64,000 bases of DNA from an uncultured virus (IMG/VR IMGVR_UViG_3300022924_000206) (taxonomy: Duplodnaviria; Heunggongvirae; Uroviricota; Caudoviricetes), in IMG/VR virus record IMGVR_UViG_3300022924_000206, one strand, 5' to 3'. The position numbers were made by a program, and so were the translations under genes. Within the stretch, counting starts at the first letter, position 1; each line of letters begins with the position of its first letter. The notes under the pieces are model-generated. The model saw only the letters and a list, made by a program, of their open reading frames with translations. It was not told the origin of the DNA and did not search any database. Positions 15,765 through 63,867 of this stretch are shown piece by piece.

Positions 15765-16259
15765 ATGGCTAAGTATCACGTAAATCCACTCACGGGAGAC
15801 GCTAGACCTTGTAAAGCTGCTTATTCCCCTTGCCCTTACGGTTCGAGAGTGACTCACTTTGATTCAAAAGCTGCAGCTGAAGAATTTTATGCTGAGGCAA
15901 GGAACGATTCGACTAAATTTCTTTATGAAAAAGAACCCGGGCGTGTAAAACCTATTCGTGATGGATATCTTCAAGGAAAAATGCACCCTACTGATTTTCG
16001 AGTAGGGGACATTATCCGGGATAAGGTCACTTACGGAAACACAACTAATTGGAGCTTTAGGGAGATCACTGCAGTTTCCCATAGCGAACATGGAGTGACT
16101 GTTACTCAACAGGTTATTTCAGAATATGATTGGAAGCCTACGGATTTCCAAAAAGAAAGACAGCCTAACGGTTATACATCTTCATTTCCGAATAACAATG
16201 ATAAAGCAACTGGGCTTCGATTTATTTTAAGAGAAAAACCAGCTGGGTGGAAAGCCTAG
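15765..16259 (+). CDS. HCCH-module family protein
   Basis: N-terminus YHVNPLTG...CKA...CPYG...HF. Confidence 0.8.
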   Translation: MAKYHVNPLTGDARPCKAAYSPCPYGSRVTHFDSKAAAEEFYAEARNDSTKFLYEKEPGRVKPIRDGYLQGKMHPTDFRVGDIIRDKVTYGNTTNWSFREITAVSHSEHGVTVTQQVISEYDWKPTDFQKERQPNGYTSSFPNNNDKATGLRFILREKPAGWKA

Positions 16260-16265
16260 AAAAAT

Positions 16266-16370
16266 ACAGAAATAGCTCAATGGTAGAGCACGGCCACTAA
16301 GGCCGGGTATAAGCAAGATATAGTGTTGCAAATCACTTTAAAAGCGCAGGTTCGATTCCTGTTTTCTGTA
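16266..16370 (+). ncRNA. tRNA-like RNA, 5-nt loop centred on CUA, long variable region
   Basis: ACAGAAA/TTTCTGT acceptor, CGGCC-ACTAA-GGCCG arm, T arm. Confidence 0.55.
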
Positions 16371-16498
16371 CGGTGAAGAGTTGTAAGTATACCTGAAGAG
16401 ACGCCTAGGGAACTTTCCGAAACATGAGGGACAGATTGCAAGCTGTTTCTGCGTGAGGCTCAGGCCGCATTTAGTACTCTATGTGCCTGAACCGTCAT

Positions 16499-16572
16499 GG
16501 GTATATAGTTCAGTTGGTTAGAGCACTTCGCTGATAACGAAGAAGTCGGTGGTTCAAGTCCACCTATACCCA
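16499..16572 (+). tRNA. tRNA-Ile(GAU)
   Basis: Cloverleaf, loop CTGATAA. Confidence 0.95.
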
Positions 16573-16573
16573 C

Positions 16574-16645
16574 GCTTCCATAGCTCAATGGTAGAGCAGG
16601 ACATTCTAAACGTTCGTGTTCTCGGTTCGAGTCCGGGTGGAGGCG
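16574..16645 (+). tRNA. amber suppressor tRNA (CUA)
   Basis: Canonical spacing puts CTA at 34-36 in loop TTCTAAA; A31-C39 mismatch. Confidence 0.8.
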
Positions 16646-16650
16646 CTTAT

Positions 16651-26923: not shown

Positions 26924-26999
26924 ACTTTAGAGGTACTGGCTCGATGTTTTATTGAGCTAATTTTTGTTAGGATGCTGCTAACGCAATAAGGAGATTTTC

Positions 27000-28073: not shown

Positions 28074-28083
28074 GGCGTAAGTT

Positions 28084-32900: not shown

Positions 32901-33515
32901 TCAGAATTCAGATTTATCGTTAGCTCGCATGGCGTTTACTGCTCCATCCGGATCAGCCATTAGCTTTTTTATCTCTTTACGTAAGCCCTTTTCGTCGAGC
33001 CCGTAAATTCTCGGTCCACCGTAAAGTAGTCGAGAAGAACCGTACCAGGAGTTCTTTGGACTCCAGGATGAAAGCATCCAGGTTCCGCTGTAGCGGTTGC
33101 CTACGCTATCGTTGTATTCGACTGAAGCATTTAGATCCCCGAACTCATCGCCCTGTTTTTCCGGATCTTTATTCTTTATGGCGAAGCGAACTTTACCCTT
33201 ACCGGCAACTTTTGCTGGGAACCCCTCTGCTACAAGATCATCGGTGAGATTAGCGGCTCTTTCGTCAATGTCAACGTGGAGAAACATACGATTTTTGCTA
33301 TTGTCAATGTTCTTTTTGAAACCTTCGCCAAGAAATTCGAACTCCTCAGCATAGAATTCTTCAAGAGCGGCGACGGCCTCAGGTTTAGTCTCATAGTGGA
33401 ATTCATCGCCATTCTCTCCACCATAAGGACAAGTCCGTATAGTTGCGTTACAATAGCCAACATTCCCCGTGTGAATGTCTATGTGATACCGCTTAGTCTG
33501 TAGTCCTTTAGCCAT
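32901..33515 (-). CDS. HCCH-module family protein
   Basis: YHIDIHTG...CNA...CPYG...HY. Confidence 0.8.
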   Translation of the reverse strand: MAKGLQTKRYHIDIHTGNVGYCNATIRTCPYGGENGDEFHYETKPEAVAALEEFYAEEFEFLGEGFKKNIDNSKNRMFLHVDIDERAANLTDDLVAEGFPAKVAGKGKVRFAIKNKDPEKQGDEFGDLNASVEYNDSVGNRYSGTWMLSSWSPKNSWYGSSRLLYGGPRIYGLDEKGLRKEIKKLMADPDGAVNAMRANDKSEF

Positions 33516-33581
33516 GTACTTATTTTCTAATGAATAGAGTCCTTTATTTCAGCGGCGTTTAGAAAAATCATCGGAGGTTTT

Positions 33582-34967
33582 ATGTTTCACATCAATAATC
33601 AAGGTAACCCGGCGTCCTGCGTGGCACGCCCGGGAAACTGTCCCTACGGTGCGGACGCTCCACATTTTGAAACCGCCGAAGAGGCACGCTCGGCTTACGA
33701 GCTAACTCAAGCAGCGGATAAATCACTCACTAAGGCTATTCGCCACGAGATGACCATTTCTTCGGATGTGAAAAAGGTGTTAGATCGCCTTTACGCTGCT
33801 GGTCTAACTCCTTACATCATCGGTGGCTCGGTGCGAGATTCTATCTTCAGTCACGAAGTTCCGAAAGATATAGATATTGAAATTTTCGGGTTGAAAGACA
33901 TGGATGAATTGGAAGCGGTGCTAGAAAAGCATAACTACAACTTCGATGCCGTGGGTCGCTCTTTCGGTGTGTTAAAACTGAAGGTTGCCTCCGGTGAAGA
34001 CCTTGACCTGTCTCTTCCGAGAAGAGATTCTAAAGTTGGGGATGGGCACAAAGGCTTCGATGTGGTAGTTGATACTACTTTAAGTTTAGAGGATGCGGCA
34101 GGTCGTAGAGATTTCACCATAAATACTCTTTACTACAGCGCACGAGATAACCGCGTAAAAGACTTTTTCGGTGGTGTAGAAGATTGGGAAAAAGGTGAGC
34201 TTCGACACATTAATGAGAGCTTCGCGGATGATCCGTTGAGGGTAATTCGCGGTGTTCAATTCGCCGCAAGATTCAAAATGAAGCTAGCCCCAGAAACCGC
34301 CGAGCTAACTCGCTCCATGGTGAACGAAATACCAAATCTCTCCAACGAAAGAATTCAAACAGAGTTTGAAAAACTGTTCTCAAAAGGTGAAATGACCTAT
34401 GGAATAGCGGCTCTTCACGATTCAGGCTGGGCGCCTGGTTTAAGATTAGGAAATGTTGACCAGAAAGATGCCGTGGAGGCGGACGCAGCCATCAAGAGAG
34501 CAAAAGCTCTAAATGATGATCCTGGTGTCTTCGCCGCAGCAAAGCTAATGAGAAAAGTTTCAGGTAAAGAAAGACTCAAGTTAGCCGATTCGGTGCTAAC
34601 AGGCCTAAAGAGACAGCAAAAAGCTGGAAAAATCATTGATAAGGTTGCTCCGGCAGCTAAAGATGAGCTCTCTATTCGCCGTTGGGCTCGCGAGTTGGAT
34701 CGTGAAGGTTTATCCCCCAAGGATTACTACATTTTCAACGGAGATGAATCACTTAGGGTCGCTTCTGAAAAACATGGAGTGTTTGAATCAGGGGATAAGG
34801 ATCTAATTACTGGCGCTCTAGTGCTGGAGAAAAGTGGCGGCAAACCGGGCCCCTGGATTGGCAAACTAATTCGAGAGGCTAACAAAGCTCAAGATGATGG
34901 TATTTTTAAGTCGCAAGATGAAGCAAATAGTTGGCTTCAAAGAAAGCTTAGTTCCATCACTGAGTAG
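33582..34967 (+). CDS. cca: class II tRNA nucleotidyltransferase (CCA-adding) with N-terminal HCCH module
   Basis: GGSVRD, DIDIE, RRDFTIN, DDPLRVIR, ERI. Confidence 0.88.
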   Translation: MFHINNQGNPASCVARPGNCPYGADAPHFETAEEARSAYELTQAADKSLTKAIRHEMTISSDVKKVLDRLYAAGLTPYIIGGSVRDSIFSHEVPKDIDIEIFGLKDMDELEAVLEKHNYNFDAVGRSFGVLKLKVASGEDLDLSLPRRDSKVGDGHKGFDVVVDTTLSLEDAAGRRDFTINTLYYSARDNRVKDFFGGVEDWEKGELRHINESFADDPLRVIRGVQFAARFKMKLAPETAELTRSMVNEIPNLSNERIQTEFEKLFSKGEMTYGIAALHDSGWAPGLRLGNVDQKDAVEADAAIKRAKALNDDPGVFAAAKLMRKVSGKERLKLADSVLTGLKRQQKAGKIIDKVAPAAKDELSIRRWARELDREGLSPKDYYIFNGDESLRVASEKHGVFESGDKDLITGALVLEKSGGKPGPWIGKLIREANKAQDDGIFKSQDEANSWLQRKLSSITE

Positions 34968-35136: not shown

Positions 35137-35547
35137 ATGAACATTTGGCATGTGACCGATGACGAAGTTGTAGAGGGTTGTTCCTCTGTCACTGGTGCTT
35201 GTAATCTTTTAGGTGCCGACAGACACTACACCTCCGAAATGGCTGCTATAGCCGCTGCCGGAGTCAGTAGTTCTAAATCTTCCAATGAGCTCACTAGTTT
35301 ATCTAGCTCTCAAATAAAAGATTTAGAAAAGATTAAGAACAATCTAAAGCAATTGTCTAACCCTGAGGTTTATTTCCATCCTCAAGGTAAGCTAATTGTA
35401 GTCAACACAACTAATCGTTCAGTCAGAGCTTATAAGGCTGGAGTTTCCATCGGAACCTCCGCGACCTTCGATAAGCTTAGGGCAGGACACGGAGCTTGGA
35501 AGAAATTAGCTACAGAAGAGCTAACTGATTTCATTTTCAGCAAATAA
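35137..35547 (+). CDS. HCCH-module family protein (divergent)
   Basis: WHV...C......C......HY. Confidence 0.65.
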   Translation: MNIWHVTDDEVVEGCSSVTGACNLLGADRHYTSEMAAIAAAGVSSSKSSNELTSLSSSQIKDLEKIKNNLKQLSNPEVYFHPQGKLIVVNTTNRSVRAYKAGVSIGTSATFDKLRAGHGAWKKLATEELTDFIFSK

Positions 35548-36703: not shown

Positions 36704-37039
36704 ATGAACAAGTTCCACATTAACCCCGAAACGGGAGAGCCCGGTAACTGTACAGCTAGTTCCGGCAATTGTCCTTTCGGCGGAGATGAAATCCACTTCA
36801 CTTCAAAAGAGGCGGCGAGAGCGGCCTATGAAATGATCGCTAGCTTTGAGAAGACTAAAGCTCTAGGTGCCTGGAAAAGAAAAGCTCGTCCAGTACAAAA
36901 TACTCTTCCTGACACCTATGTAGGGCACGGAGTTCCCATGGGCCACGGAACACCCATCCAAAGACCGACTCCACCGCCATCCGCCCCACGTCCAGTAACT
37001 CCAAATTACGGTCACGGTTCAAGCGGACATGGTCGCTGA
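36704..37039 (+). CDS. HCCH-module family protein, GHG/Pro-rich tail
   Basis: FHINPETG...CTA...CPFG...HF. Confidence 0.8.
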   Translation: MNKFHINPETGEPGNCTASSGNCPFGGDEIHFTSKEAARAAYEMIASFEKTKALGAWKRKARPVQNTLPDTYVGHGVPMGHGTPIQRPTPPPSAPRPVTPNYGHGSSGHGR

Positions 37040-47757: not shown

Positions 47758-48576
47758 TTAAAAGGTATTGGAGATAAAAGCATCATTGGCTCGAGCGAAG
47801 AATCGAGCCCTTGAAAGACTGTCCCAATTCCCATCATCGTGAGTTTCTTGAGCAATGGTGATTCTTTCTCCATTGTTCTGAACTAGATAAGCGGTAGCTA
47901 CTCCATGGCGACTTCTTACGTAGATTTCGTTGAATCCGGGACGATCGGTTAGCGGCGCTTCCCAAACATCAGGAGCTCCCCAGCCGGTTCTCTCTAGTTC
48001 GATTCCATCGAGACTAACTGTTCCATCATTGAGGTTGTTATACATTTCTTTTAGTTGAACGTGCGAGCGACTGTCTTGATCGAAAACGTCCGGAAATTTC
48101 TCTTTCGCTTTGTCCATGGAGCTTTCAAAAGCATAGGCGAGAGCCCGGGGAGTAACGGTGCCATCACTATCGTAATCCTGTGATTCAAAGGTTACTTCAG
48201 CTATGGTTTCTCTTTCCTTGTCAAAACTCGCTACAAACCATGCCTTCTTATCATCGAATCCAAAGTAGGCGGTTTCTTGTCCTCCGAAAATTTCACTCGC
48301 TCCGTGGTAATAAGCTGCATCATAACTGTTACGGTCACGTTCAAAACTGATACCGTTGAGTTCTAAATCTCCATAGGGGAACTGACCAATCAATGACTCA
48401 TCTCGTAAATCTCTTTTTGCTAGAGCCACTAAACTGTTGGAGCTCATTGAAGCTTCATAGGCATCTCTAGCCTCTTCGAGCGAGTCATAGTGATTTTCCT
48501 CACCGAAAGGGCACTCGTAAACTGCCCTACACTCCCCGGTGTTACCAGTTTGTGGGTTTACATGAAATCGGTTCAT
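47758..48576 (-). CDS. HCCH-module family protein
   Basis: FHVNPQTG...CRA...CPFG...HY. Confidence 0.8.
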   Translation of the reverse strand: MNRFHVNPQTGNTGECRAVYECPFGEENHYDSLEEARDAYEASMSSNSLVALAKRDLRDESLIGQFPYGDLELNGISFERDRNSYDAAYYHGASEIFGGQETAYFGFDDKKAWFVASFDKERETIAEVTFESQDYDSDGTVTPRALAYAFESSMDKAKEKFPDVFDQDSRSHVQLKEMYNNLNDGTVSLDGIELERTGWGAPDVWEAPLTDRPGFNEIYVRSRHGVATAYLVQNNGERITIAQETHDDGNWDSLSRARFFARANDAFISNTF

Positions 48577-48658
48577 CGTTCAACTCCTAAAGCTTAGTTG
48601 ATTTTCTAACGTCATAATCTGAGTCATTTAGAAAGAGCCTGGAGGAGTTATTAGATTT

Positions 48659-49309
48659 ATGTACCATATTACGGCTGAAGGACCTAAGCGCTGTTCAGCT
48701 AAGCCAGGAAATTGCCCTCTAGGCGGCGAGCATTTCGGTTTCAAAGAGGATGCAGAGTCCTCTTATCTCGAATCCTTAGTACAGAATAATGAAACTTTTC
48801 CTCCGAAAAAAGATGAACTTGATCTACCTTGTGCTTTCGGCACCATGCGAGTGAAAAATGGCGACCTTACGGATGTCAAAAGCCGCACGGCTCTGATTAG
48901 TGGGCTCTGTGGTTCACTTGCTTTAGCTGTTCACGATAAAACCGGTGGGACACCGCACTTCGTCTGCTACGGAGTCAAAGAGGACGAAGATTTAGAGCAG
49001 CTTTTCGCGGAAGATGGAAATGTTCTATTAGATGTCGCCACCCACGCTTTGGTAGAAAGCAAAACTAAACCAGGAACATATCTTGATTCCTACGGTCAGA
49101 AAACATTAGCGGATCTTCAGAATTTCTACGGGGATGACATTCGAGTTATTCCCGGTAATAGAGCTATGTTGGTAGCCTACAGTGAAACCGGAGTGCCTGA
49201 TATTCTCGGGAAGTTCGCCGATTCTGTGATCGACCTGGATTCTAAAGGCAAAAGTTATGATTACGATGACTTTGATTTGGATGACCAAGATTTTGAAGAC
49301 GATGAATAA
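48659..49309 (+). CDS. HCCH-module protein with Cys-His-Asp domain
   Basis: YHITAEGPKRCSA...CPLG...HF; GLCGSLA, HALV, YLDSYG. Confidence 0.75.
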   Translation: MYHITAEGPKRCSAKPGNCPLGGEHFGFKEDAESSYLESLVQNNETFPPKKDELDLPCAFGTMRVKNGDLTDVKSRTALISGLCGSLALAVHDKTGGTPHFVCYGVKEDEDLEQLFAEDGNVLLDVATHALVESKTKPGTYLDSYGQKTLADLQNFYGDDIRVIPGNRAMLVAYSETGVPDILGKFADSVIDLDSKGKSYDYDDFDLDDQDFEDDE

Positions 49310-49376: not shown

Positions 49377-50231
49377 ATGAGAATCCACATGACACCGGCA
49401 GGGCCAAAACCCTGTTCGGCCACAAAAAGAGCCTGTAAATATGGAGAGCACTACGATTCTCAAGAGGAACTTCAAGCAGCTTTAGCTGAGACCTTCGATG
49501 GAGTAAAAGGTAACATCAAGAAGAAGAAAAAAGATGTTCTTCTCGAAAAATTCAGAGTTGCTCCATTGCCTGATCAAGCGGAACTTCTACAGAGACTAAC
49601 TGACGCCGCTACGGTGAATGGGCTTGTGGATGTATCGGAAAGAGAGCTTGAAGAGGCTAAGGAATTCTATTCCCTTGTGCTTCAAGGTGAAATTCCAGAG
49701 TCATTCCCTGAGTTTGACCGGCCAGAGGGAGAATACCATCCTTTGGATTTCGCTTTGCATAATCAGCTCTGTGAAGCAGGCCTCTACGGAAAAGTTACAA
49801 AAAAGGTGGCGAGAGAGTTGAAAGCTGAAATAGGCGCAGACGCCGTTGTCCTTGATCCCATGGCTGGTAAAGGCTATGGAGTAAAAGCATTGAGAGAGGT
49901 TGGTATCAAATCAATCGCCACCGATGATAACTCATGGGATATTTCAGAGCAGGTTGAAAATCTAGACGCTTTAGCGAGTGTAAGAAAGTATGGAAAAGAT
50001 TCAACTCATGTGCTTCTTTCTTGGCCACCAAACAATGATGACATCGACCTAAAAGTTTTGGAACTTTGCCGCAGTGAATTCCCCCATCTAACCGTAATAA
50101 ACATCGGTGAAAGCAAAGGATGCACGGGCTCTTACGAGTTCTGGGACAATGAAGAGCGCGTGGAGCAGAAAACCTCGCTTGCTTATCCCACATCTCCGCA
50201 ACTTAGAGATCGCATCACCTTCCATAAGTGA
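49377..50231 (+). CDS. HCCH-module protein with SAM-methyltransferase-like domain
   Basis: HMTPAGPKPCSA...C.YG.HY; LDPMAGKGY, LSWPP. Confidence 0.75.
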   Translation: MRIHMTPAGPKPCSATKRACKYGEHYDSQEELQAALAETFDGVKGNIKKKKKDVLLEKFRVAPLPDQAELLQRLTDAATVNGLVDVSERELEEAKEFYSLVLQGEIPESFPEFDRPEGEYHPLDFALHNQLCEAGLYGKVTKKVARELKAEIGADAVVLDPMAGKGYGVKALREVGIKSIATDDNSWDISEQVENLDALASVRKYGKDSTHVLLSWPPNNDDIDLKVLELCRSEFPHLTVINIGESKGCTGSYEFWDNEERVEQKTSLAYPTSPQLRDRITFHK

Positions 50232-52464: not shown

Positions 52465-52608
52465 ATAGATATTACTTCGGTAGGATACTAACGGAAGAAC
52501 CTTTGGGCTCAATCCGATAGCCAATACAACAGAATAAAAGTACAAAATTCAGCTTGCGTCAACTTTGACTAGAGCTTCGGAGAGAGTCAATAAAAGTTAG
52601 GAAAAACC

Positions 52609-53109: not shown

Positions 53110-53110
53110 A

Positions 53111-54229
53111 GTGGACAACCACAGCTTTGTAAGTGGGAATGAGACATTCAACTTCCAAGGTGATTGGATCAAGTTAGCTAGATCAGAATCATCCGCGGCG
53201 AAGCTCCATAAGGAGAATGCCTGGTTCCAATACTTCAAATCCTTGGAGAGTATGCCTTTGATTCTTCCTAGGCAGGTCTCCTTCTTCAACAACCGCGTAC
53301 TCATGACCTCGAGTATCTACGGTGAATCCGCTTCCGAGCGCTTTCTCAACGATAATTTGTCCGAGCGCGAATTCGGGATTATCTGCAAGGCTCTTTTAGA
53401 GTTCCAGAAGCTTCCGGTTGAAGAGGATGCTGTAAAACCTAGCGGTTCTCTCTATGCTGGTCGTGTGGAACGTTTAGGTGCAGCTCAGGATATTAAAGAA
53501 TGGTTCAAACCTCTTCTAGAGAATATCCCTGAGCTCACATATTCTCACGGAGATTACCATCTAGGTAATATTCTCCTCACCGAGAGAGGTGTAGGTGTTG
53601 TGGATCCGGGAGAGTACCCGGTATTCGACCCGCGCTACGATTGGGCGAAGCTTTACCACTCTCTCCGTGGTTACAATCATCTCATCGAGGATGTCAATTT
53701 CATAATCGACTCCAATATAGAGGCTAAGTTCTTTGAACACTGCCCGTATCCTCGTGAAGAAATTGAGAAGCTCACCGGTTTCCTATTCCTCACCATGCTT
53801 CCTCTTCACCAGCGCGGTAATCAGTTGAAGATCCTAAACAAAGCCAACGAGATTCTCGAGCCTCTGGGTCTACGTAAAGTATATCTTTCGGATTATTCAG
53901 CTAAGAGTGAGCTTTACGTGGATTTCGATGGGACCATCGTTTCTCTTGAGAAAGATTTCATGGAGGGTGAGCCCAATGAGGAGCTCATCACTGTTTTACG
54001 TGATTACTACGAAAACAACAAGCGCATTGTTATTTATACTGCTAGAGGTATGAAAAGCAATAATGGCGACTTGGCGATAATTGAAAAGAACGTTAAACCA
54101 AGAATAGCAGAGTGGCTAAGACTTCATAATGTGCCTTACCACGAGCTAATCGTAGGAAAACCGTTCTGGGAAATTCTTATTGATGATCGAGTGAAAAATA
54201 TTGAGGATGTGAATAGTTGGATATTCTAG
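53111..54229 (+). CDS. APH/choline-kinase-like domain fused to HAD phosphatase
   Basis: HGDYHLGN, DP, YDWAKL; DFDGT, YTARGM, GKP, IDDR; start placed at GTG 53111. Confidence 0.75.
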   Translation: MDNHSFVSGNETFNFQGDWIKLARSESSAAKLHKENAWFQYFKSLESMPLILPRQVSFFNNRVLMTSSIYGESASERFLNDNLSEREFGIICKALLEFQKLPVEEDAVKPSGSLYAGRVERLGAAQDIKEWFKPLLENIPELTYSHGDYHLGNILLTERGVGVVDPGEYPVFDPRYDWAKLYHSLRGYNHLIEDVNFIIDSNIEAKFFEHCPYPREEIEKLTGFLFLTMLPLHQRGNQLKILNKANEILEPLGLRKVYLSDYSAKSELYVDFDGTIVSLEKDFMEGEPNEELITVLRDYYENNKRIVIYTARGMKSNNGDLAIIEKNVKPRIAEWLRLHNVPYHELIVGKPFWEILIDDRVKNIEDVNSWIF

Positions 54230-55833
54230 TCACCGCCGCCGGAGAATCAAAACGCTTCGGAGGGCAAGATAAATACCTTCTGGATGTCCTTGGGTTTCCC
54301 ATGCTTCATTGGGCGCTTCGCTCCATTGGAAAATCAAAAGGTCACAATGTTGTGATCGTGATTTCCAAAGAGGAAAATAAAGCTCAAGTTGAGAAAATCG
54401 CTAAAGAGGCAGGATTCCCTGAGGTCACCGTAGAGATCATCGAAGAGACCACCGGCCAGGCTCATACGGTGCAACAATCTTTGAAATTCCTAAAAGGAAG
54501 AGCATTTCTAGTCATCCCAGTTGACACGGTATTAGCTGAACCTTTAAATACTCGTGGGCTCTCTCGCAACACCATCATCACTTTCCCGTCAAAAGATTAT
54601 AGCTCCTACTCATTCGTAAAGCTCGATGGAGACAATGTTGTTTCCATTGAGGAGAAGGCTCCAGGAGATTTAGCCACCGCAGGCTATTACTCTTTTGCCT
54701 CCAAAGAGCAGTATCAAGCGGCCTGGGATCTCATTGACCATGGGCAAGAGGAATACATTTCTCATATTTACCAGAAGCTCATCGAGCTAGGTAAATCAGT
54801 AAAAAGCCAAGAGATTCCCGCTAATTCAGTTATTGATCTCGGTACCCCTGCTAAGGTAGAAGAAAACCTTGATCGAATTTTTGAAAAGCTATTAGCCGAT
54901 GTTCCTAAGCAGCGTAGTATTTCTTTCGATGACCTGAAGAAAGAGCTACAAGATGTCTCCTACAACCCGGATAACAAGTTTGTTCTTGATCTTCTAGAGA
55001 GCCACGTAGACAAGCCGATTAGTGATCGAGTAGGTTTTGGCAGTCTTGTCCATAACTACAATTATAGCTGCCGCACTATCAATCAGCTTCTAAAAGAAAA
55101 AGACCTCTCCTGGGTTACATTCTTCCTCTACGATACTGTAGATGGACCTTATTCTCTCTGGCGTTATCTCGAGTCACGCCTGGGAGCTAACTTGGTGGTC
55201 ATCGAAGATTCAGCGGACATCAAATACAAGGTGCCTCACAAGAGGCAAGCCATAATCGACCACTTCACCGCCATAGGTAAAGAGTGGACAGTGATTTTTG
55301 ACGATGATTTCTCTTGGAGAATTGCCTACAAGAAGAACGGTTCAAAAACCCCTAAGAGTAGAGCCGTTGACTTCCCACTAGCCGTGAAAATGATCGCTTG
55401 GTTAGCTGTGGAGCAGGATTACGATTTCCTTTGCACAGGTACTAACACTCGTCGTATGCAGTACGTGAAATACGGTCCCGTGATTAGTAGGCCCGGGGCT
55501 ATCTATTGGAACTTCTTCCTCATGCGTAACAGCGTGCTAAAAGAGCGTGGAATTAGATTTGTGACTGACCGCCAGATCCACGAGGATCTAGCTATGAGTC
55601 TAGATATTGCTAAGAGTAGCGATTCAGCCTATGTGCTTTTTCTGTATCAAGTGCCCTCATTCGACTTCAATCAACAGTCATTAGTTGATCGTGAAGAGGA
55701 AACCGTGAAATATGGTGAGGGATTCTGGGATATCAAGATTAAACTTCAGGGTGGCATGGAGACTAAGTTCTTCAACATAAATCGTCAGAAGATAGCCGAA
55801 CATAAAAAGCCCGAAAAGACCAAACTTATTTGA
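54217..55833 (+). CDS. sugar nucleotidyltransferase fused to GT-A glycosyltransferase
   Basis: AAGESKRF, EEK, DLGTP; C-terminal FDDD and HED. Confidence 0.75.
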   Translation: MDILVTAAGESKRFGGQDKYLLDVLGFPMLHWALRSIGKSKGHNVVIVISKEENKAQVEKIAKEAGFPEVTVEIIEETTGQAHTVQQSLKFLKGRAFLVIPVDTVLAEPLNTRGLSRNTIITFPSKDYSSYSFVKLDGDNVVSIEEKAPGDLATAGYYSFASKEQYQAAWDLIDHGQEEYISHIYQKLIELGKSVKSQEIPANSVIDLGTPAKVEENLDRIFEKLLADVPKQRSISFDDLKKELQDVSYNPDNKFVLDLLESHVDKPISDRVGFGSLVHNYNYSCRTINQLLKEKDLSWVTFFLYDTVDGPYSLWRYLESRLGANLVVIEDSADIKYKVPHKRQAIIDHFTAIGKEWTVIFDDDFSWRIAYKKNGSKTPKSRAVDFPLAVKMIAWLAVEQDYDFLCTGTNTRRMQYVKYGPVISRPGAIYWNFFLMRNSVLKERGIRFVTDRQIHEDLAMSLDIAKSSDSAYVLFLYQVPSFDFNQQSLVDREEETVKYGEGFWDIKIKLQGGMETKFFNINRQKIAEHKKPEKTKLI

Positions 55834-55982: not shown

Positions 55983-56987
55983 TCAATTCCATTTATCTTT
56001 CCAACTGACTCGTCCAGCATTACTTGAGTTGAAGTAATCTACCTGACCATTTATGTCAGAGCTCTCGTACTGCTTAGCTAAATGAGAAACGTAAGCCTCT
56101 AAACGATTAGCGGCTTCTCTTTGGTTTCTACGGAAACTATTCTCTCCATCAGAGACCCATTCGGTAGGAATTGCCTCCGCCTTAGTGGCGCCCCCAGGCT
56201 TGTAACCGATGTTTACACTGATCGAACTTACCCAAGCACCATCGTTCTTTTTAACTGAAACGTCAATCCACTTAGGTAGCTCTCCAGCAGCTTTCGCTTC
56301 ACCTACAAGCTTACGAATTCCAGCAGCCGCTGCGGTTTGACCAATGAAAATAGATTTACCGTCGGCGTCCTTCTGTCCAGCCAAGGCGCCGATGAATCTA
56401 CGGCCTCCCATGTAACCCTGATCGTCATTGGCCTGCGGTGGCCCACCGACCTTAGCATTTTCAACTTCAGGCACAGTTGCGAGAATTGCCTTGTCGAACT
56501 CAGCAGCCGTATTTGGAGCTGGGAAGCTTATTGGTTTAGGAGCTCTCACGGACTTTTTTGGAGCTGCACTCTTCACCGTGCCTAGCGGGGTCGAGGGGAC
56601 GCTCAAATACTCAGGATTTACCGAGAGAGAATCCTCGGGTTTTCCGCCGTTGGTGTTATCCTCAATGTAAGCTAGAAGCTCTCTACGAGCTCCATAAATT
56701 TTGAAGCCATCGGGTTCAATAGCCACATTGAGTTTCGGATAGGAGCCATCGGCAAATTTACCTTTACCATCAACCACGGGCTTCTCTGCTCCGAGATCCT
56801 TCACTAGGAAAGGGAATTTCTGCTGTGGAGTTTTAACCCCTGCAAAAACACCGCTCTGCTGCTTCTCGTAGGAAGCTCTAGCTGCCTCGGCTGAGGTGAA
56901 GTGGGCATCCTCCCCACCGAAGGGACAGGATTTTTCAGCTCGACACTGACCGGGCTCACCTTTACCGTTGATGTGAAATTTAGCCAT
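55983..56987 (-). CDS. HCCH-module family protein
   Basis: MAKFHINGKG...CRA...CPFG...HF; start placed at ATG 56987. Confidence 0.8.
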   Translation of the reverse strand: MAKFHINGKGEPGQCRAEKSCPFGGEDAHFTSAEAARASYEKQQSGVFAGVKTPQQKFPFLVKDLGAEKPVVDGKGKFADGSYPKLNVAIEPDGFKIYGARRELLAYIEDNTNGGKPEDSLSVNPEYLSVPSTPLGTVKSAAPKKSVRAPKPISFPAPNTAAEFDKAILATVPEVENAKVGGPPQANDDQGYMGGRRFIGALAGQKDADGKSIFIGQTAAAAGIRKLVGEAKAAGELPKWIDVSVKKNDGAWVSSISVNIGYKPGGATKAEAIPTEWVSDGENSFRRNQREAANRLEAYVSHLAKQYESSDINGQVDYFNSSNAGRVSWKDKWN

Positions 56988-56997: not shown

Positions 56998-57465
56998 CTA
57001 GTCAATCTCAATGCCGAGGTCTTGTAATTTGTTTTTAGCGTTAGTCATCTTTCTATTGCGAGACGAGTGGATTCTAGCCACCTGCTCCATATATACCGGA
57101 TTCTGTTCCATGGTCCAATGAGGCCCGGATTGAACAGTGTCATTGTAATTAGCGATGTGCTTCAAAGCTAATTTCTTGTCTTCAGCAGACAGTCCTTTAA
57201 GCTTTCTAGCATCCGTAGAAATGATTCCGTTTTTATCTCGACCCAAGAGCAATTTTCCCTCAGGAGTATGACGAACCGAAGATTCCTTTGATTTCTTAGT
57301 AACCGGGCGGAAGGATAGGCCACCAGCTACAGCTTTGTTCACAAGCTCAGCGGCTTTAGAGGCGTCTTCTTTCGTTGAGAAGTGAATATCCTCGCCACCG
57401 AATGGACAAGATTTTTCTGCTCGGCAGCGTCCAACCTCACCGGTTTTGGGATTTATGTGGAACAC
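56998..57465 (-). CDS. HCCH-module family protein
   Basis: FHINPKTG...CRA...CPFG...HF. Confidence 0.8.
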   Translation of the reverse strand: MFHINPKTGEVGRCRAEKSCPFGGEDIHFSTKEDASKAAELVNKAVAGGLSFRPVTKKSKESSVRHTPEGKLLLGRDKNGIISTDARKLKGLSAEDKKLALKHIANYNDTVQSGPHWTMEQNPVYMEQVARIHSSRNRKMTNAKNKLQDLGIEID

Positions 57466-57516
57466 GGAATCAACTCCTTAGACTAAAAGTTTTCTAACTA
57501 AATTAGAAAAACCTCC

Positions 57517-58725
57517 ATGCGTTATCACTTGACTCCAGACGGTCCTAAACCATGCTCAGCCACAAAAATAGCATGTCGTTATGGCGAGCATTTCGAGAAC
57601 AAGAAAGATGCTCAAGGAGCCTTTGAAAATGACCTTAGTGAAACAGTAGGTTTCAATGGGCTTAAATCAAATACTTCCGGCGAACTAGCCGCCGAGGTAT
57701 CTAGAGCCTACGCTCACTGGTCAATAGTGAACGATCATCTTCACAATGCTTCAGGAACAGGGAACGAAGCTGAACTAATCTATTACGCATCCGCTCAAGG
57801 GCAACTGGAATTAGCTAGACGCTCCCGTTCAAAATACAACAAAGAGTATTTAGCCATAGCTGACCGCATCAAAAACGGGGAACCTAAAAACTTTGAGCTC
57901 ACAGTGGACCCCGATGCTCTTGAAAAATCCATAGCTGCCGGTGAAGCTCATCTTCTAAAGGATACCTCCACCTTCTACTTGGAAGATAAAGCGCCCAGAC
58001 ATAATGAGGAGCTTGGACATAAACTCATCGAGCTCTCCCATGAGTGGCTAAAGAATCTTTCACCAGAACAGCAGGAGGCCGTTGGTTGGCTGACTAGTAA
58101 CGGCTTCGGCATGTCTCAATATGCTCTCGGTATCAAAAATGAGAACGCGGGACACTATTTTGATGGAATCATTGATGAAAATGCTATCTATGATAAGCAT
58201 GGGGCAGATTACAAAACGGCGGAAATAGAGATCGAGCAGGCTAAAAACGATTACGCGGAAAATTATCTCTCCACAGTAATTTCAGCCTTCGAGAAGGTTC
58301 CGAGGCTCAAAACACCCATCGTGATCGCTAGAGGAACTAGTATAGATGAACTTCAGGATATCCTAGGAACAGACACAACCGACACTAAGAGTTTATTCGA
58401 TTCCATAGAAAAAGGAAAGTTCCTCAATAAAGAGGCTCCCAAAAATTCTCGAATCAGACGAGGTCCGCAGTCCGCCACCGCGAAGCTAGGAACTAGTTCC
58501 AGTTTTGCGAAACGACTCTGGGGAAACAAAGTAAACGAGGATCGAGAGATCGTGTTAGCCATCAAAACTACCAGTGTCCCCTCACCGGTAAATGTGAGCG
58601 CTTGGAGCACCGGAGAGTATGAAATTTTCACAAACCCACTCAGCAGCTACAGGGTTGTGGGAGGTCGTAGAGGACCTCGAGAATCATTTATTCTAGAATT
58701 AGAGGAACTCGCTGCTGGTCAATGA
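57517..58725 (+). CDS. HCCH-module protein with ADP-ribosyltransferase-like C-terminus
   Basis: YHLTPDGPKPCSA; IARG...QSAT...GEYEI (R-S-E pattern). Confidence 0.65.
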   Translation: MRYHLTPDGPKPCSATKIACRYGEHFENKKDAQGAFENDLSETVGFNGLKSNTSGELAAEVSRAYAHWSIVNDHLHNASGTGNEAELIYYASAQGQLELARRSRSKYNKEYLAIADRIKNGEPKNFELTVDPDALEKSIAAGEAHLLKDTSTFYLEDKAPRHNEELGHKLIELSHEWLKNLSPEQQEAVGWLTSNGFGMSQYALGIKNENAGHYFDGIIDENAIYDKHGADYKTAEIEIEQAKNDYAENYLSTVISAFEKVPRLKTPIVIARGTSIDELQDILGTDTTDTKSLFDSIEKGKFLNKEAPKNSRIRRGPQSATAKLGTSSSFAKRLWGNKVNEDREIVLAIKTTSVPSPVNVSAWSTGEYEIFTNPLSSYRVVGGRRGPRESFILELEELAAGQ

Positions 58726-59555: not shown

Positions 59556-60821
59556 ATGCCTACATTCCCAGGCTTGGACATTGAGATAATCCGTAATCAA
59601 CCGGAACTCGTCCGCAGTTCCCTAGTAGCGCGTGGTCTCGATGTGACCCTTCTAGATCAGGCACTTGTAGCCGATGAGACCTATCGTAATTCGCTAACGG
59701 CGCTCGAGCTCGCAAGCCAGGAGAAGAATCGAGTCACTAAGCTCCTCAGCACCCGCCCAGCTAATTTTGACGAGCTGAAAGCGCAAGCAAAAGAGTTCGG
59801 AGCCAATCACAACGCTCTAGCAACTGAGCGGGATAATGCTCTTGCGGCGCTCGCTGAAATCACCGCGCAAATACCAAACTTGGTCCACCCGGAGGTTCCG
59901 CTCGGCGGGGAAGACGATTATGTGGTCCTAAAAACTCACGGAGAGTTTCCAAAGAAAAACTTTGAGCTCAAAAGCCATGATGAGCTGGGCCTCACCCTTG
60001 GGCTCTACGATGCGGAGCGCGGAGTAAAAGTAAGTGGTTCGCGTTTTGTGTTCCTCAAGGGGGCCGGAGCCATTCTCGAAAAGGCACTCATCGACTACGC
60101 TCTAGCTAAGGCGATTGCCAGCGGTTTCATTCCACTCACAACACCGACTCTAGTGAAGCCGGAGATAATGGAAGGGACAGGTTTCACAACTAAGCACAAT
60201 GATGAAATCTACTATCTTCCGGCGGATGATCTATATCTCACCGGTACAAATGAGGTGGCTCTGGCCGGTTACCACGCTGGAGAAATTCTGACTCTCGATG
60301 AAACTTTGAACTACGTGGGTATTTCGACTTGCTACCGCCGGGAGGCTGGAGCGGCTGGTAGAGATACTCGCGGGATCATTCGACTCCACCAGTTCAATAA
60401 GCTCGAGGGATTCATTTACACCACCGTAGGAGACGCGGAGGCTCAGCACGCTAATCTTCTAGCACTTCAAGAGGAAATTCTCCAGGGATTGGGACTTCAC
60501 TATCGAGTTATTGATACGGCGGCCGGGGATCTCGGAACAAGCGCCTACCGTAAGTACGATGTGGAGGCTTGGATTCCTAGCCAAAATCGTTTCCTAGAAC
60601 TAACCTCGAGCAGCAATTGCCTCACCTATCAGGCTAAACAGCTTGACATTCGGGAGCGCACCGCAGAGGGAAACAAAGCCGCAGCAACTCTAAACGGCAC
60701 TCTCGCCACCACTCGTTGGCTTGTTGCTATTCTTGAACAGCACCAGGACGAAAACGGCAACGTGAAAATTCCGGAGGTACTTCTTCCCTACACCCACGGA
60801 ATCACCGAACTAGTCGGATAA
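59556..60821 (+). CDS. serS: seryl-tRNA synthetase
   Basis: Coiled-coil N-arm, YRREAG...RGIIRLHQF, NGTLATTR. Confidence 0.93.
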   Translation: MPTFPGLDIEIIRNQPELVRSSLVARGLDVTLLDQALVADETYRNSLTALELASQEKNRVTKLLSTRPANFDELKAQAKEFGANHNALATERDNALAALAEITAQIPNLVHPEVPLGGEDDYVVLKTHGEFPKKNFELKSHDELGLTLGLYDAERGVKVSGSRFVFLKGAGAILEKALIDYALAKAIASGFIPLTTPTLVKPEIMEGTGFTTKHNDEIYYLPADDLYLTGTNEVALAGYHAGEILTLDETLNYVGISTCYRREAGAAGRDTRGIIRLHQFNKLEGFIYTTVGDAEAQHANLLALQEEILQGLGLHYRVIDTAAGDLGTSAYRKYDVEAWIPSQNRFLELTSSSNCLTYQAKQLDIRERTAEGNKAAATLNGTLATTRWLVAILEQHQDENGNVKIPEVLLPYTHGITELVG

Positions 60822-60823
60822 TT

Positions 60824-61816
60824 TCAGGCGATTAAAGCTTCCTGTTTTTCAACGGTGTTAGCCCAGCTAGTCGGTCCCTTATCAAAATTGGGGACCGGCT
60901 TAGCTGGATTTGCTGCAATAGTTGTTGGAGCCGCGGATTTAGCTCTGTGGAAACTCCCACCGTAGCCCTGGTAAAGTGAGATCGGTACAACTGCCTGACC
61001 AAGAACGTAGCCTTGAGCTTTCAAATTGTCATAACGTGACCCGGGCTTTGAGCCTTTCTGAGTGAAAGGGGTTCGTGTCCCATCGGCTGCCACGGCGGAG
61101 AATCCCTGATTGGGAGCTCTCATATTGAAATTCACTAAACCGAGGAAATCACCCTTGGACGAGTAAAGACCTCTTACTAAGCCTTCGCCCGGAGCGAGCT
61201 TTATTCCATCCACAACTCTCGGTTGAGTTACTTCATAAGCTGTTTTTGCCAGAATGTATTGGGCAGCCACATCTACATAAGCTTTTAGCGGCTTCATTTT
61301 CTCTTCGATTGCCGCTCTGTCAGCCGTCAGCTTAGCTATTGTTGCGTCTAAAGCGATGCCCTCAGGGGAACCTTCGAGTTTCTTTCCAAGTCCTTTTTTA
61401 TTTTTGCGAGCAGCATCGAGCTCGTCGGTGATGAGTTCGCTATCTTTTCTCAAAAGGGCAAAAGAAACCGTTTCAGGATCGTTCTTTTCAACGGTGTCCA
61501 TGTAATCCTTGAATTGCTCACGGGGAATACTCATGAGGTCTTCGTGGCTCATGGGGGTAAAAGTTGACGAACCGTAGCTTCCGGATTTGTAAAGCTTCGT
61601 GAGAACATCGCTAAAGTTCCTTGGTTCCACTTTCTTCTTAGGCTTAGCTAAAGTCTTGTGAGCCTCAGCTTCCATTGCGGTTTCAAAAGCGTTTACCGCA
61701 GCCTCTTCGGAGGTGTAGTGGTTTTCGCCACCGTTTTTACCACCGAAAGGACATTTACCGTGCTCGGCAGAGCATTTTCCCGGCCCATTGGGTCCCACAT
61801 GGAATACGCCGCTCAT
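60824..61816 (-). CDS. HCCH-module family protein
   Basis: FHVGPNGPGKCSA...CPFG...HY. Confidence 0.8.
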   Translation of the reverse strand: MSGVFHVGPNGPGKCSAEHGKCPFGGKNGGENHYTSEEAAVNAFETAMEAEAHKTLAKPKKKVEPRNFSDVLTKLYKSGSYGSSTFTPMSHEDLMSIPREQFKDYMDTVEKNDPETVSFALLRKDSELITDELDAARKNKKGLGKKLEGSPEGIALDATIAKLTADRAAIEEKMKPLKAYVDVAAQYILAKTAYEVTQPRVVDGIKLAPGEGLVRGLYSSKGDFLGLVNFNMRAPNQGFSAVAADGTRTPFTQKGSKPGSRYDNLKAQGYVLGQAVVPISLYQGYGGSFHRAKSAAPTTIAANPAKPVPNFDKGPTSWANTVEKQEALIA

Positions 61817-61880
61817 AGAAACTCCCTCTTCTATGGAGTTTCTAAAGTGAAAGATTCAGGAGCTGTTTAGATATTTGTCT

Positions 61881-63146
61881 ATGGTTTACCACATTCATCC
61901 GGTCACCGGAACCCCTGCGCTTTGCAGAGCTGAAAAAGGACATTGTCCTTTCGGAGCTCATCAAGAGCATTATGCATCGAAAGAGTTAGCTCGCGGGGCA
62001 TTTGAAGAGCAGATGAAAGACGAATTGCTTTCAACTCATAAGCATGATCCAGAACTTGCTAAATCAGTACGAGAGCTTTTTGATTATCATATTCAGAACA
62101 GTGATGATCCAGATGTGAAATCTCTTCTTGAGTATACTAAAGAAGAGTTAGCAACGGCCGATTCAGTGGTAAAACTCAATAGAATTTCAGCACTTTACTA
62201 CAGCGCCGCCAATGACCTCGATGACGACGAGAACACAGCTGAAGCTTCGGATATGGTCGGTGTAGTCGCGGAAACGCTGAGGGAACACTATAGAGGGTTC
62301 AGAACTGGTCTAATCAATAAGGACCTCCTCGAAGATGAAGAGGGCTATGTAGCCCCTCGAAGAGAGTTAACTAAACAGACCCTAGAGAAAGAAAGACAGC
62401 GTAACCTAAACAATAAGCTAATAAATTCTTTAACTGAAAGCGGCCTTGTCAAAACAGAAGGCTACCAGGTCGCTATCGTTAGAAGTGACGAAAGCGAAGA
62501 AACATTGGGAGAGTTTATCCGCAATACTCCCAATGATGCTGTTTTCTACGGAACCACGGGAATAGCTAAAAATGACGAAGCTAGAAAGATAGTAGAGGCT
62601 AACGGCAATGCTCTTGTCAAAGCTTTCACCGTGGACGGAGAATTTTCTGCACCTTTGCAAATGTCGAGAGACACAAAAAGGTTACCGGAAGGTTTTGTCT
62701 ATCTCGCCGCCGGAGCTGAGAGTAATGTATACCTCCACGAAGCCACCGGAACGGTTTATAAAATTCCCCATAGGGAAGCTATTACTAAAGATCGCTTCGC
62801 CGGAGGAAACGAAGAAGACAAAGAGAGAAATTCACTCAACGCGGTTGTTTTCAATGCTGAAGCTGCCTATAAACTAATAGATAGGAAAACATTAGCGAAA
62901 GATTACGGAGCTGAATATCTCACCACCTATTTCCTCTCCCTCAATGACGAATCAGGTAAATCGGTCGGAATTATCGTCCAGCCGTATCTTGACGGAGAGC
63001 GCTATATGGATTACTCATTAACCAATGAAGAGCGTTATGATCCTCAGGTAGCAGGGGTTAATGACATCCACGGTGGTAACGTAAGACTAGACAGAAAAAC
63101 AGGCAAGCTAGTATTGTTTGATTGCCTATTCCATAATGCCTTCTGA
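61881..63146 (+). CDS. HCCH-module protein with protein-kinase-like C-terminus
   Basis: YHIHPVTG...CPFG...HY; AGAESNVY, VYKIP, DIHGGN, LFD. Confidence 0.72.
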   Translation: MVYHIHPVTGTPALCRAEKGHCPFGAHQEHYASKELARGAFEEQMKDELLSTHKHDPELAKSVRELFDYHIQNSDDPDVKSLLEYTKEELATADSVVKLNRISALYYSAANDLDDDENTAEASDMVGVVAETLREHYRGFRTGLINKDLLEDEEGYVAPRRELTKQTLEKERQRNLNNKLINSLTESGLVKTEGYQVAIVRSDESEETLGEFIRNTPNDAVFYGTTGIAKNDEARKIVEANGNALVKAFTVDGEFSAPLQMSRDTKRLPEGFVYLAAGAESNVYLHEATGTVYKIPHREAITKDRFAGGNEEDKERNSLNAVVFNAEAAYKLIDRKTLAKDYGAEYLTTYFLSLNDESGKSVGIIVQPYLDGERYMDYSLTNEERYDPQVAGVNDIHGGNVRLDRKTGKLVLFDCLFHNAF

Positions 63147-63147
63147 C

Positions 63148-63867
63148 ATGAGATACCATCTGAATGAGAAAGGCCCTGCAATTTGCAGGGCCAAAAGCGA
63201 TGATTCATGTCCCCTCGGAGCTAAGGATTCCAGTTCAATCCACTATGAGACGAAAGAACTCGCTCAAACAGCTTTCGAAGAAAAGTTAGCGCAAGAACAC
63301 GGAGGCAATCTCACAGCCTCTAAGAAAACTCCTAAAGTGATCGAAACTGAGTTTGATCCGTTCTCCCTAGTCGAGGATCCTCCCGGGGCAAAAAGCGGTA
63401 CCATCGTGAGAGCTAAAGACGGTACTCTACTAATAGTCTCCGACAATGACACTTACAATGAGTTCGGCGCCTACATGGTAGGAAATCTCACCAATGAGCC
63501 GGAAATAGCCGCAAAGCTCCATAAATTAGATCCTAGAAAGAATTACCAGGAAGGCTCATGTGATTCACTGTCATTCGCTCTGTTAGAAGCCAACGAGGAC
63601 ATCGTGGCTGTGGATGAATTAGTCAATGAGAGTGGGGAAATGTGGCATTCCATAGCTCGTCATAAAGACGGCTACTATATTGATTCCTTAGGGAAGTGGA
63701 GTGAGCAGGATCTTTACGATTATTGGGAGAGCATCGGTATTCGTGAAGACGAGGGTGAGTTCTCTTTCAAATATGATGTCCATGAAGAGCCGGGCAAAAA
63801 TCCCAATTTTGCCCCTGAAGATTCACTGAAACCTTTAGTAGTTTACTTAAATTCTCTTACTAAATAG
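63148..63867 (+). CDS. HCCH-module protein with Cys-His-Asp domain
   Basis: YHLNEKGPAICRA...CPLG...HY; GSCDSLS, WHSI, YIDSLG. Confidence 0.75.
   Translation: MRYHLNEKGPAICRAKSDDSCPLGAKDSSSIHYETKELAQTAFEEKLAQEHGGNLTASKKTPKVIETEFDPFSLVEDPPGAKSGTIVRAKDGTLLIVSDNDTYNEFGAYMVGNLTNEPEIAAKLHKLDPRKNYQEGSCDSLSFALLEANEDIVAVDELVNESGEMWHSIARHKDGYYIDSLGKWSEQDLYDYWESIGIREDEGEFSFKYDVHEEPGKNPNFAPEDSLKPLVVYLNSLTK

Follow-up and report, generated by a model that had tools for sequence, protein, structure and literature searches.

Why would a virus begin unrelated proteins with the same small element? The question is raised by a stretch of 64,000 nucleotides from an uncultured virus of the Caudoviricetes (IMG/VR record IMGVR_UViG_3300022924_000206), which we analysed over its full length and refer to as the window. 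A preliminary description, made from the letters alone, had stated that fourteen of its proteins share an N-terminal module with the residue order His-Cys-Cys-His (H-C-C-H), fused to unrelated domains, and had proposed that this module is a zinc-binding address tag, for example for capsid packaging and co-ejection. We find that the module forms an unnamed family that is specific to phages and characteristic of one group of very large uncultured ones, and we give roughly even odds (about 0.5) to the reading that it is a common protein-binding address, read by one shared receptor.

The H-C-C-H module

Fourteen open reading frames (ORFs) of the window, with the starts given in the preliminary description, encode the module within the first ~50 residues of their translations. 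We call these ORFs tagged, and the part of each protein outside the module its cargo. The pattern shared by all fourteen is [YFWI]H[IVLM]..G..C.A..C[P][FYL]G..H[FY]..A..[YF]E. The tagged ORFs are as follows, the upstream motif mentioned in some lines being TTAGAAA, which is treated in the next section:

ORF 1, 15765..16259, plus strand: 164 residues; module at residues 1 to ~50; cargo family without a name; TTAGAAA 45 nt upstream.
ORF 2, 32901..33515, minus strand: 204 residues; module at residues ~7-62, acidic; unnamed cargo; divergent from the ORF at 33582; motif 15 nt upstream.
ORF 3, 33582..34967, plus strand: 461 residues; module and CCA-adding tRNA nucleotidyltransferase.
ORF 4, 35137..35547, plus strand: 136 residues; degenerate module with a CNLLG knuckle, four of four ligands kept; Ser-rich linker.
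ORF 5, 36704..37039, plus strand: 111 residues; module and Gly/His/Pro-rich tail.
ORF 6, 47758..48576, minus strand: 272 residues; unnamed cargo; weak hint of an APH kinase.
ORF 7, 48659..49309, plus strand: 216 residues; C...H...D pattern in the cargo; weak alignment with ORF 14.
ORF 8, 49377..50231, plus strand: 284 residues; cargo phrog_19090 (function unassigned); weak acetyltransferase matches.
ORF 9, 55983..56987, minus strand: 334 residues; unnamed cargo; protein recorded on a 683,316-base contig.
ORF 10, 56998..57465, minus strand: 155 residues; GTG start; unnamed cargo.
ORF 11, 57517..58725, plus strand: 402 residues; module and ADP-ribosyltransferase-like cargo; motif ends 8 nt before the ATG; no Shine-Dalgarno sequence.
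ORF 12, 60824..61816, minus strand: 330 residues; unnamed cargo.
ORF 13, 61881..63146, plus strand: 421 residues; weak Kinase-PolyVal match.
ORF 14, 63148..63867, plus strand: 239 residues; C...H...D pattern in the cargo.

For three of these genes the ORF list holds longer TTG starts (57011 for 56987, 61875 for 61881 and 63118 for 63148); we prefer the ATG starts, because the module then begins at residue 1, as it does in the relatives. Searched in six frames, the window contains 14 matches to a loose regular expression and 13 to a stricter one, the latter having no match across 50 shuffles of the window. A hidden Markov model (HMM) of the module retrieves the same 14 frames and nothing more, even at E<=10. 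The claim of fourteen proteins with a common N-terminal module is borne out by these searches. In the alignment of the 14 N-termini, H5, C16, C23 and H31 are invariant, and A18, G26 and A38 nearly so.

A greedy ORF list has 45 ORFs of at least 100 residues between 15.7 and 63.9 kb, and the module is on 14 of them. Roughly one gene in three is thus tagged over these 48 kb, and a whole genome plausibly has a hundred or more tagged genes. Eight tagged ORFs are arranged as head-to-head pairs (33515/33582, 48576/48659, 57465/57517 and 61816/61881). As DNA, the modules resemble one another little and do not form repeats, the best local score being 38 over 135 nt, but their protein pattern is kept, which indicates that conservation acts on the protein. 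Near-identical modules are found on unrelated cargos at 49377 and 57517, and at 56987 and 57465.

From 303 instances in the wider family we derived the consensus M-A-K-[YF]-H-[IV]-N-P-x-(T)-G-x-P-G-x-C-x-A-x-x-G-N-C-P-F-G-G-x-x-x-H-[YF]-x-[ST]-x-E-x-A-R-x-A-[YF]-E. The ligand positions H5, C16, C23 and H31 are conserved in 100, 100, 100 and 99% of the instances, nine positions are held at 97-100%, and the closing A-[YF]-E is conserved at 76, 81 and 80%; Lys3 and Arg47 are fairly conserved. An AlphaFold2 model of the module alone, built with a 65-row alignment, is confident (mean predicted local distance difference test score, pLDDT, 83.6) and presents the module as an independent mini-domain, with strands at residues 3-6 and 13-16 and a helix at residues 35-50. 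The predicted layout is a beta-hairpin, a CP[FY]G knuckle, a short strand and a helix. Four invariant Cys/His ligands in a compact predicted fold are what is generally found in zinc domains. On the strength of the four-ligand pattern and the predicted fold, the module most likely binds one zinc via His5, Cys16, Cys23 and His31.

The best structural resemblance is to a Kunitz/BPTI fold, which likewise combines a hairpin with a C-terminal helix at similar size, but we assign no fold from it. The scores (Foldseek E 0.39; VIA Z 4.2, rmsd 2.5 over 40 residues) are noise for a 50-residue model and the disulfide pattern is absent; Kunitz/BPTI proteins are secreted protease inhibitors with three disulfides, whereas the module is cytoplasmic and has two Cys and two His. 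A self-association run with two copies of the module and zinc, without controls, gave a score of 0.02, which counts neither way.

The position of the module is nearly fixed. In 181 proteins (14 from the window and 167 from databases) it begins within residues 1-7 in all but one (180/181), the first His lies at position 3-7 in 177 and at exactly position 5 in 140, and a second copy, in tandem or C-terminal, occurs in five. In the same proteins the module has a mean net charge of -1.2, and single values run from -7 to +4. The disorder-promoting fraction of the 30 residues past the module is 0.65, against 0.63 in a later segment, and we therefore claim no special linker.

Spread, cargos and promoter-like element of the family

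A profile made from the 14 sequences was searched against 1.84 billion representative proteins and found the module in 5,603 clusters at E<=0.001 and in 1,663 at E<=1e-10. Among the best 150 matches, which are proteins of 63-473 residues, the match lies nearly always at residues 1-50. One widespread family member of 267 residues has homologues that are 87-93% identical. In the viral models of BFVD, the 11 best matches all come from one uncultured phage, "Siphoviridae sp. ctHip2", each being a different protein; one is labelled Zeta toxin and the other ten are uncharacterised. The structural neighbours of the module in the Atlas are viral hypothetical clusters.

No characterised domain covers the module: it has no Pfam model in the 14 window proteins, 150 representatives and 117 further relatives, and no match in PHROGs or NCBIfam. 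A profile search of PDB sequences gave insignificant stretches resembling the RNA-recognition motif (E >= 0.06). Among cultured phages, a tblastn search with one module and one full tagged protein against 50,697 phage records found none. No description of the module was found in the open literature, including the accessible parts of PMC7824862 and PMC5512222, with subscription journals and supplements outside the scope.

A 36-base degenerate pattern, searched against metagenomic contigs, returned 71 stretches that represent 70 distinct loci, on contigs of 727, 437 and 385 kb, several of 297-330 kb, and many short ones. The profile confirmed modules in 63 of the 70 loci, with 154 tagged ORFs in 117 clusters at 80% identity and arrays as dense as seven tagged genes in ~6 kb. 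In several related loci the neighbouring genes are 47-86% identical to genes of the window, and orthologues of tagged genes share about 43-57% identity across loci and keep the module; because of both similarities we regard the related loci as one clade. A further IMG/VR record of 89 kb (G001) holds six module copies. A shorter, 20-base degenerate pattern, run against one genome per prokaryotic species and against viral stretches, gave mostly noise: among the matches listed (143 loci), one of 23 viral stretches contained a true module and none of the loci from the prokaryotic genome collection did. The module is suggested to be rare in cellular genomes. One marginal match, locus L061, lacks the first His and the hairpin and was rejected as a module.

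Tagged proteins range overall from 63 to 922 residues and generally have one recognisable cargo each. With the module removed, cargos of at least 60 remaining residues were linked by BLAST, and the 266 cargos fell into 162 families without BLAST connection, 116 of them singletons. Pfam searches of the 117 relatives gave 14 matches above cut-off, two below, and none for the other 101. Above cut-off are Zeta_toxin/AAA_33 (two), RNA_lig_T4_1 (two), RNase_T (two, one with YqaJ), RE_HpaII, MvaI_BcnI, AAA_33 with HAD_PNKP, a complete NAD-dependent DNA ligase (LigA), ART-PolyVal (4.5e-14), HD_5, Zn_ribbon_Top1 and DUF3228. Nine of the 150 representatives have any Pfam match (HD, NUDIX, HNH, winged helix-turn-helix and Zeta, besides a few weak ones), and the tagged cargos of G001 include a 922-residue superfamily 2 (SF2) helicase and a PARP-type ADP-ribosyltransferase (ART). 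Judged by these domain matches, the named cargos would mostly repair or attack nucleic acids, hydrolyse nucleotides or modify proteins.

The tagged genes also look, from their upstream sequences, like a transcription class of their own. They are preceded by an element, (G)TTAGA[AGT]A, that resembles a -10 promoter element without a -35 and is newly described here. In the window its copies include:

15720..15726, plus strand: TTAGAAA, upstream of 15765.
33524..33565, divergent intergenic region: TTTCTAA ... TTAGAAA, one element per direction.
48603..48634, divergent intergenic region: TTTCTAA ... TTAGAAA, one element per direction.
57491..57509, divergent intergenic region: TTTCTAA-5 nt-TTAGAAA, one element per direction.
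61839..61845, minus strand: TTAGAAA, upstream of 61816; the partner gene on the plus strand has the variant TTTAGAT.

The spacing of the elements varies among the divergent pairs. TTAGAAA lies within 100 nt upstream of 8 of the 14 tagged genes of the window and of 1 of 95 other ORFs (p=7e-8), the comparison set here and below also taking in ORFs that are unverified and genes that lie within operons; tagged genes that lack the element are mostly preceded by another tagged gene of the same strand. For the loci and the window together, TTAGA[AGT]A occurs within 120 nt upstream of 75 of 135 tagged and 39 of 620 other ORFs (p=3e-37). The enrichment is also seen when counted per 60%-identity cluster with the window left out (56/95 versus 21/277, p=1e-23), and in G001 the element precedes three of six tagged genes and 1 of 80 others. 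A G precedes it in 61% of cases, and there is no conserved -35.

The element ends either ~7 nt before the start codon (12 cases at 1-8 nt) or ~15-38 nt before it, and by eye no Shine-Dalgarno sequence is seen upstream of 33515 and 57517. These features of the upstream sequence suggest that a subset of the tagged genes has leaderless mRNAs. A sigma-70-type promoter scan between 47 and 64 kb of the window found 13 sites where 19.2 were expected. TATAAT was found upstream of 4 of 121 tagged genes and 91 of 623 others before clustering; a depletion of TATAAT at tagged genes was rejected, being not significant once clustered (4/95 versus 29/277, p=0.09).

A proposed address and its alternatives

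We hypothesize that the H-C-C-H module would be an independently folding mini-domain of ~45 residues, held by one zinc, that one shared receptor would recognise at the N-terminus of each tagged protein. Co-regulated but unrelated enzymes would in this way gather at one site during one stage of infection, the delivered set comprising enzymes that repair or attack nucleic acids, nucleotide hydrolases, kinases and ARTs. We favour an address because the module is pinned to the N-terminus, is an acidic folded domain, is under selection at the protein level, stands before at least 162 cargo families and belongs to one expression class. A strict N-terminal position is expected of a terminal tag and is not required of a DNA-binding or catalytic domain. 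As for the zinc-binding address tag of the preliminary description, a module of ~45 residues with four invariant ligand-type residues, a predicted fold, an N-terminal position and unrelated cargos stands; we infer the zinc binding, the shared partner and the destination.

Several points weigh against an address. No partner of the module was found, the conserved positions appear mostly structural (ligands, Gly, Ala and Pro) and a conserved binding surface is not evident, and duplication could pass on a promoter together with the 5' end behind it even if the proteins had no partner in common.

For the destination we consider two possibilities. Loading into the prohead or capsid followed by co-ejection, the example given in the preliminary description, is a live hypothesis and not the only one, and we hold it to be rather unlikely. 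An intracellular phage site or hub (a replication and repair factory, a compartment or a scaffold protein) has about the same chance and is equally compatible with the observations. In favour of packaging, the ART cargo has relatives in other phages that are joined to MuF or minor-capsid domains, the A-[YF]-E at the end of the module has the A-X-E form of the prohead-protease site of phage SPN3US, the tagged genes have a separate promoter class, and phage T4 offers a precedent by analogy. The gene content speaks against packaging. Neither a recognised virion gene beside the tagged genes, nor a MuF or portal fusion, nor a virion neighbourhood appears in the window, the 70 loci or G001, and the surroundings of the tagged genes are replication, repair, nucleotide and translation genes. 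None of 287 family proteins (14 + 150 + 117 + 6) has a virion domain in Pfam, the non-module ORFs that carry the promoter-like element are a mixed set without an obvious virion gene, and the NAD-dependent DNA ligase, the 922-residue helicase and the CCA enzyme are of kinds that ordinarily work inside the cell.

The T4 precedent is instructive in both directions. According to the accessible text of PMC9026906, the T4 capsid-targeting sequence (CTS) carries foreign enzymes such as nucleases, and GFP, into the head, is found on internal proteins and on Alt, an ADP-ribosyltransferase, and has been proposed as an evolutionary device for loading varied proteins. Like the module, it is an N-terminal element common to unrelated proteins of one phage. 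The CTS is a peptide of ~10 residues that is cut off by gp21, unstructured and metal-free, whereas the module is a predicted fold of ~45 residues with four metal-ligand residues; this difference from a short peptide tag also counts against packaging.

The head and ejection propeptides of giant phages (SPN3US and phiKZ-like) give a second comparison. The accessible part of PMC10052503 describes how the SPN3US prohead protease gp245 removes N-terminal regions after A-X-E, and the module ends in A-[YF]-E. In contrast to the module, the propeptides covered there have 20-254 residues and neither a shared fold nor a metal site. Unlike the SPN3US site, the A-[YF]-E of the module lies within a predicted helix and may be conserved for structural reasons.

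Polyvalent proteins (Iyer et al. 2017) resemble the tagged set in repertoire: in the accessible part of PMC5512222 they include ARTs, kinases, Pol-beta nucleotidyltransferases, helicases, nucleases and hydrolases of nucleotide signals. From this repertoire, ART-PolyVal is found above cut-off among the relatives; Kinase-PolyVal and LPD29 score below cut-off. As described there, however, polyvalent proteins string 2-15 domains on one polypeptide and are tied to virion or conjugation genes or to MuF or portal fusions. Tagged cargos are separate genes, each with its own tag, and no virion, MuF, portal or conjugation context is seen in the window, in the 117 representatives of the 70 loci or in G001, within the visible parts of these genomes. 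In ARTs fused to MuF or minor-capsid domains, an equivalent cargo is tethered to an N-terminal domain for virion incorporation, but the module has no similarity to MuF (no Pfam match) and the analogy is one of position only. The ZAD of insect C2H2 proteins is likewise an N-terminal zinc mini-domain on a lineage-specific expansion; according to the accessible part of PMC7913770 it has four Cys, forms homodimers and sits on animal DNA-binding proteins, and it has no homology to the module. The module differs from the CTS, propeptides, MuF-tethered toxins and polyvalent proteins in being a small, predicted, probably zinc-binding fold repeated on separate genes with their own promoter class.

Among explanations that dispense with an address, the one that survives best makes the module a small nucleic-acid-binding zinc finger. 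It would attach directly to DNA or RNA ends, nicks, single strands or tRNA and keep each enzyme at its substrate, in the manner of the N-terminal zinc fingers of some repair enzymes. We consider this explanation improbable. Nearly all nameable cargos act on DNA, RNA or nucleotides and the tagged genes sit in replication and repair regions, but named cargos are a minority (14 of 117 and 9 of 150), phage annotation is biased toward nucleic-acid enzymes, and the ART, Zeta-type kinase and putative Cys-His-Asp cargos act on proteins or small molecules. The fairly conserved Lys3 and Arg47 speak for it; the mean charge of -1.2, which in many modules falls to between -3 and -7, speaks against a generic binder of nucleic acid. 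Nor would substrate binding call for so strict an N-terminal position, and the module matches no known nucleic-acid-binding finger in sequence or fold.

Still less probable is a regulatory cap, either a degron or stabiliser (for example for a phage ClpP-type system) or a zinc or redox switch over toxic enzymes. Degrons are typically terminal, the tagged genes are co-regulated, the window encodes two adjacent ClpP-type subunits (42885-44080), and many cargos are dangerous to cells (restriction endonucleases, Zeta-type kinases, ARTs and HNH proteins). Degrons are, on the other hand, mostly short unstructured peptides and not folded metal domains, and no adaptor or unfoldase partner was found.

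At the same low level we place the possibility that there is no partner at all and that promoter, start codon and folding mini-domain form a 5' cassette, spread by duplication or recombination, that would give captured genes expression and solubility; the joint travel of promoter element and module, the near-identical modules on unrelated cargos, the 116 singleton cargo families and the mainly structural conserved residues would all fit, but the modules have little likeness as DNA, and yet nine positions of the protein stay at 97-100% across thousands of clusters, a sign of long-standing selection on the protein and not of recent copying, and orthologous tagged genes retain the module at 43-57% overall identity.

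If the module is an address, the label defines the phage's deployed toolkit at once, and sorting in huge phages becomes directly testable, since a reporter can be joined to a domain of 45 residues. In that case the module could also be used as a portable tag that takes proteins into capsids or phage compartments. The chance that it marks a new type of sorting system is substantial. A wider version, which we regard as doubtful, is that a clade of 0.3-0.75-Mb phages uses the module as its universal signal for loading or import and sends every tagged protein to one destination, be it the capsid or a phage-built compartment. If so, it would be the first structured, metal-dependent sorting signal known in a bacterial virus, with its own promoter class, and with the capsid as destination the phage would co-inject a ready-made arsenal of repair enzymes, nucleases, kinases and ADP-ribosyltransferases. 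Huge phages have hundreds of genes whose organisation is barely understood, and the module is a simple, searchable label that picks out a large, co-regulated share of these genes, with no fewer than 5,600 clusters and 162 cargo families. Were it a structural cap only, it would still be a large unnamed domain family deserving a database entry, and the (G)TTAGA[AGT]A element offers a way into the transcription programme that uncultured giant phages follow.

Cargos and gene surroundings in the window

The cargo labels of the preliminary description fared unequally. The CCA-adding enzyme at 33582-34967 is confirmed by Pfam (PolyA_pol PF01743, 4.8e-18, and PF12627, 5.8e-09, both above cut-off), by phrog_2244 (1.2e-50) and by NCBIfam CCA models, whose equivalogs score under their cut-offs; the protein has the PolyA_pol head domain and the RNA-binding domain of such enzymes. 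The ADP-ribosyltransferase-like label of ORF 11 is a lead. Its Atlas neighbours are ADPrib_exo_Tox proteins (features 0.95, and also by structure) that carry PF03496, and the structural neighbours of this cargo in other phages belong to clusters that also carry Phage_Mu_F or Phage_min_cap2; there is no Pfam match even at E<=5. By eye, we take its R / S-x-S / E-x-E residues to be a putative catalytic pattern of ARTs.

The kinase-like label comes down to weak matches, to Kinase-PolyVal in 61881-63146 (E=0.019) and to APH in 47758-48576 (E=0.02). The methyltransferase-like label of 49377-50231 was not confirmed, its matches being weak ones to acetyltransferases; the ORF has what we assume, again by eye, to be a Rossmann-like GxG motif. 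For the two Cys-His-Asp cargos (ORFs 7 and 14) there are their weak mutual alignment and weak fold hints: a low-confidence model of ORF 14 (pLDDT 58.6) matches transglutaminase, SseI, protein-glutaminase, NlpC/P60 and TecA at Z <= 4.3. The kinase-like, Rossmann-like and Cys/His/Asp patterns that we presume by eye agree with the earlier labels, with weak support from the tools. A PDB sequence search gave nothing useful for the cargos of 61881, 47758, 57517, 60824, 63148 and 49377.

Two homologues of ORF 14 deviate at the N-terminus: one of P0172 and P0175 begins right after the module (193 residues) and the other has a scrambled N-terminus. They may be natural variants without the module, or artefacts of gene calling or frameshifts.

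ORF 5, the smallest tagged protein of the window, has a tail that ends in GHGSSGHGR, and its end shares one base with the start of a radical-SAM gene (37039-37794) that has generic radical-SAM matches only. In the 727-kb relative, a radical-SAM gene that is 80% identical (L155:383-1150, minus strand) lies just downstream of a tagged gene for 155 residues (L155:1154-1621), of which a twin copy (L154:5689-6156) has a tail that aligns with that of ORF 5 (47% over 66 residues). Tagged proteins of this type and the radical-SAM enzyme are possibly a substrate-enzyme pair for peptide or protein modification.

The window is part of a huge uncultured phage, since the protein of tagged ORF 9 is recorded on a contig of 683,316 bases. 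It contains no recognised virion gene. Between 370 and 24139, all on the plus strand, lie 51 tRNA genes and a transfer-messenger RNA with the tag ANTSQNDWALAA; the tRNAs include an amber-reading one with anticodon CTA, called 'Pyl' (16574-16646), and two with four-base anticodons (gaca, 7540-7611; gaat, 12066-12141). The long ORFs of the window are open under the standard code. A DnaE-type polymerase is split (25478-30822) into parts of 481 and 912 residues, consecutive parts of phrog_405, with a clamp-loader gene between them (27000-28073). The best relatives of the polymerase in known phages, those of Saccharomonospora and Streptomyces, are less than 40% identical, and a megablast search of the polymerase region against the phage collection gave no match.

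Further genes encode a ribonucleotide reductase beta subunit, a deoxynucleoside-monophosphate-kinase-like protein, MazG and an RNA-repair HAD domain. The two ClpP-type subunits reach 214 and 250 bits on cellular ClpP models (cut-off 228) and 84 and 70 bits on the ClpP-related head-maturation model (cut-off 120); PHROGs label both 'head maturation protease'.

A run of genes at 50333-55833 encodes a ParB-like protein, a TET-associated glycosyltransferase, an APH-type kinase with a HAD/heptose-isomerase-like part, and a nucleotidyltransferase with a second glycosyltransferase-like part. It looks like a DNA hypermodification cluster, a reading that would fit a phage whose related contigs carry tagged restriction endonucleases.

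In G001, adjacent ORFs of 1,000 and 1,489 residues and one of 785 residues (L216:10590-18061), all without a Pfam or PHROG match, sit in a replication and repair block. Cell-like metabolic and translation genes of the window lie at 44467-47754 and 59556-60821. They encode a histidyl-tRNA-synthetase-like fragment (phrog_4806), a fatty-acid desaturase and a full seryl-tRNA synthetase, and a gene of the aspartate-ammonia-lyase/fumarase type has a best match of 52% identity in the phage collection.

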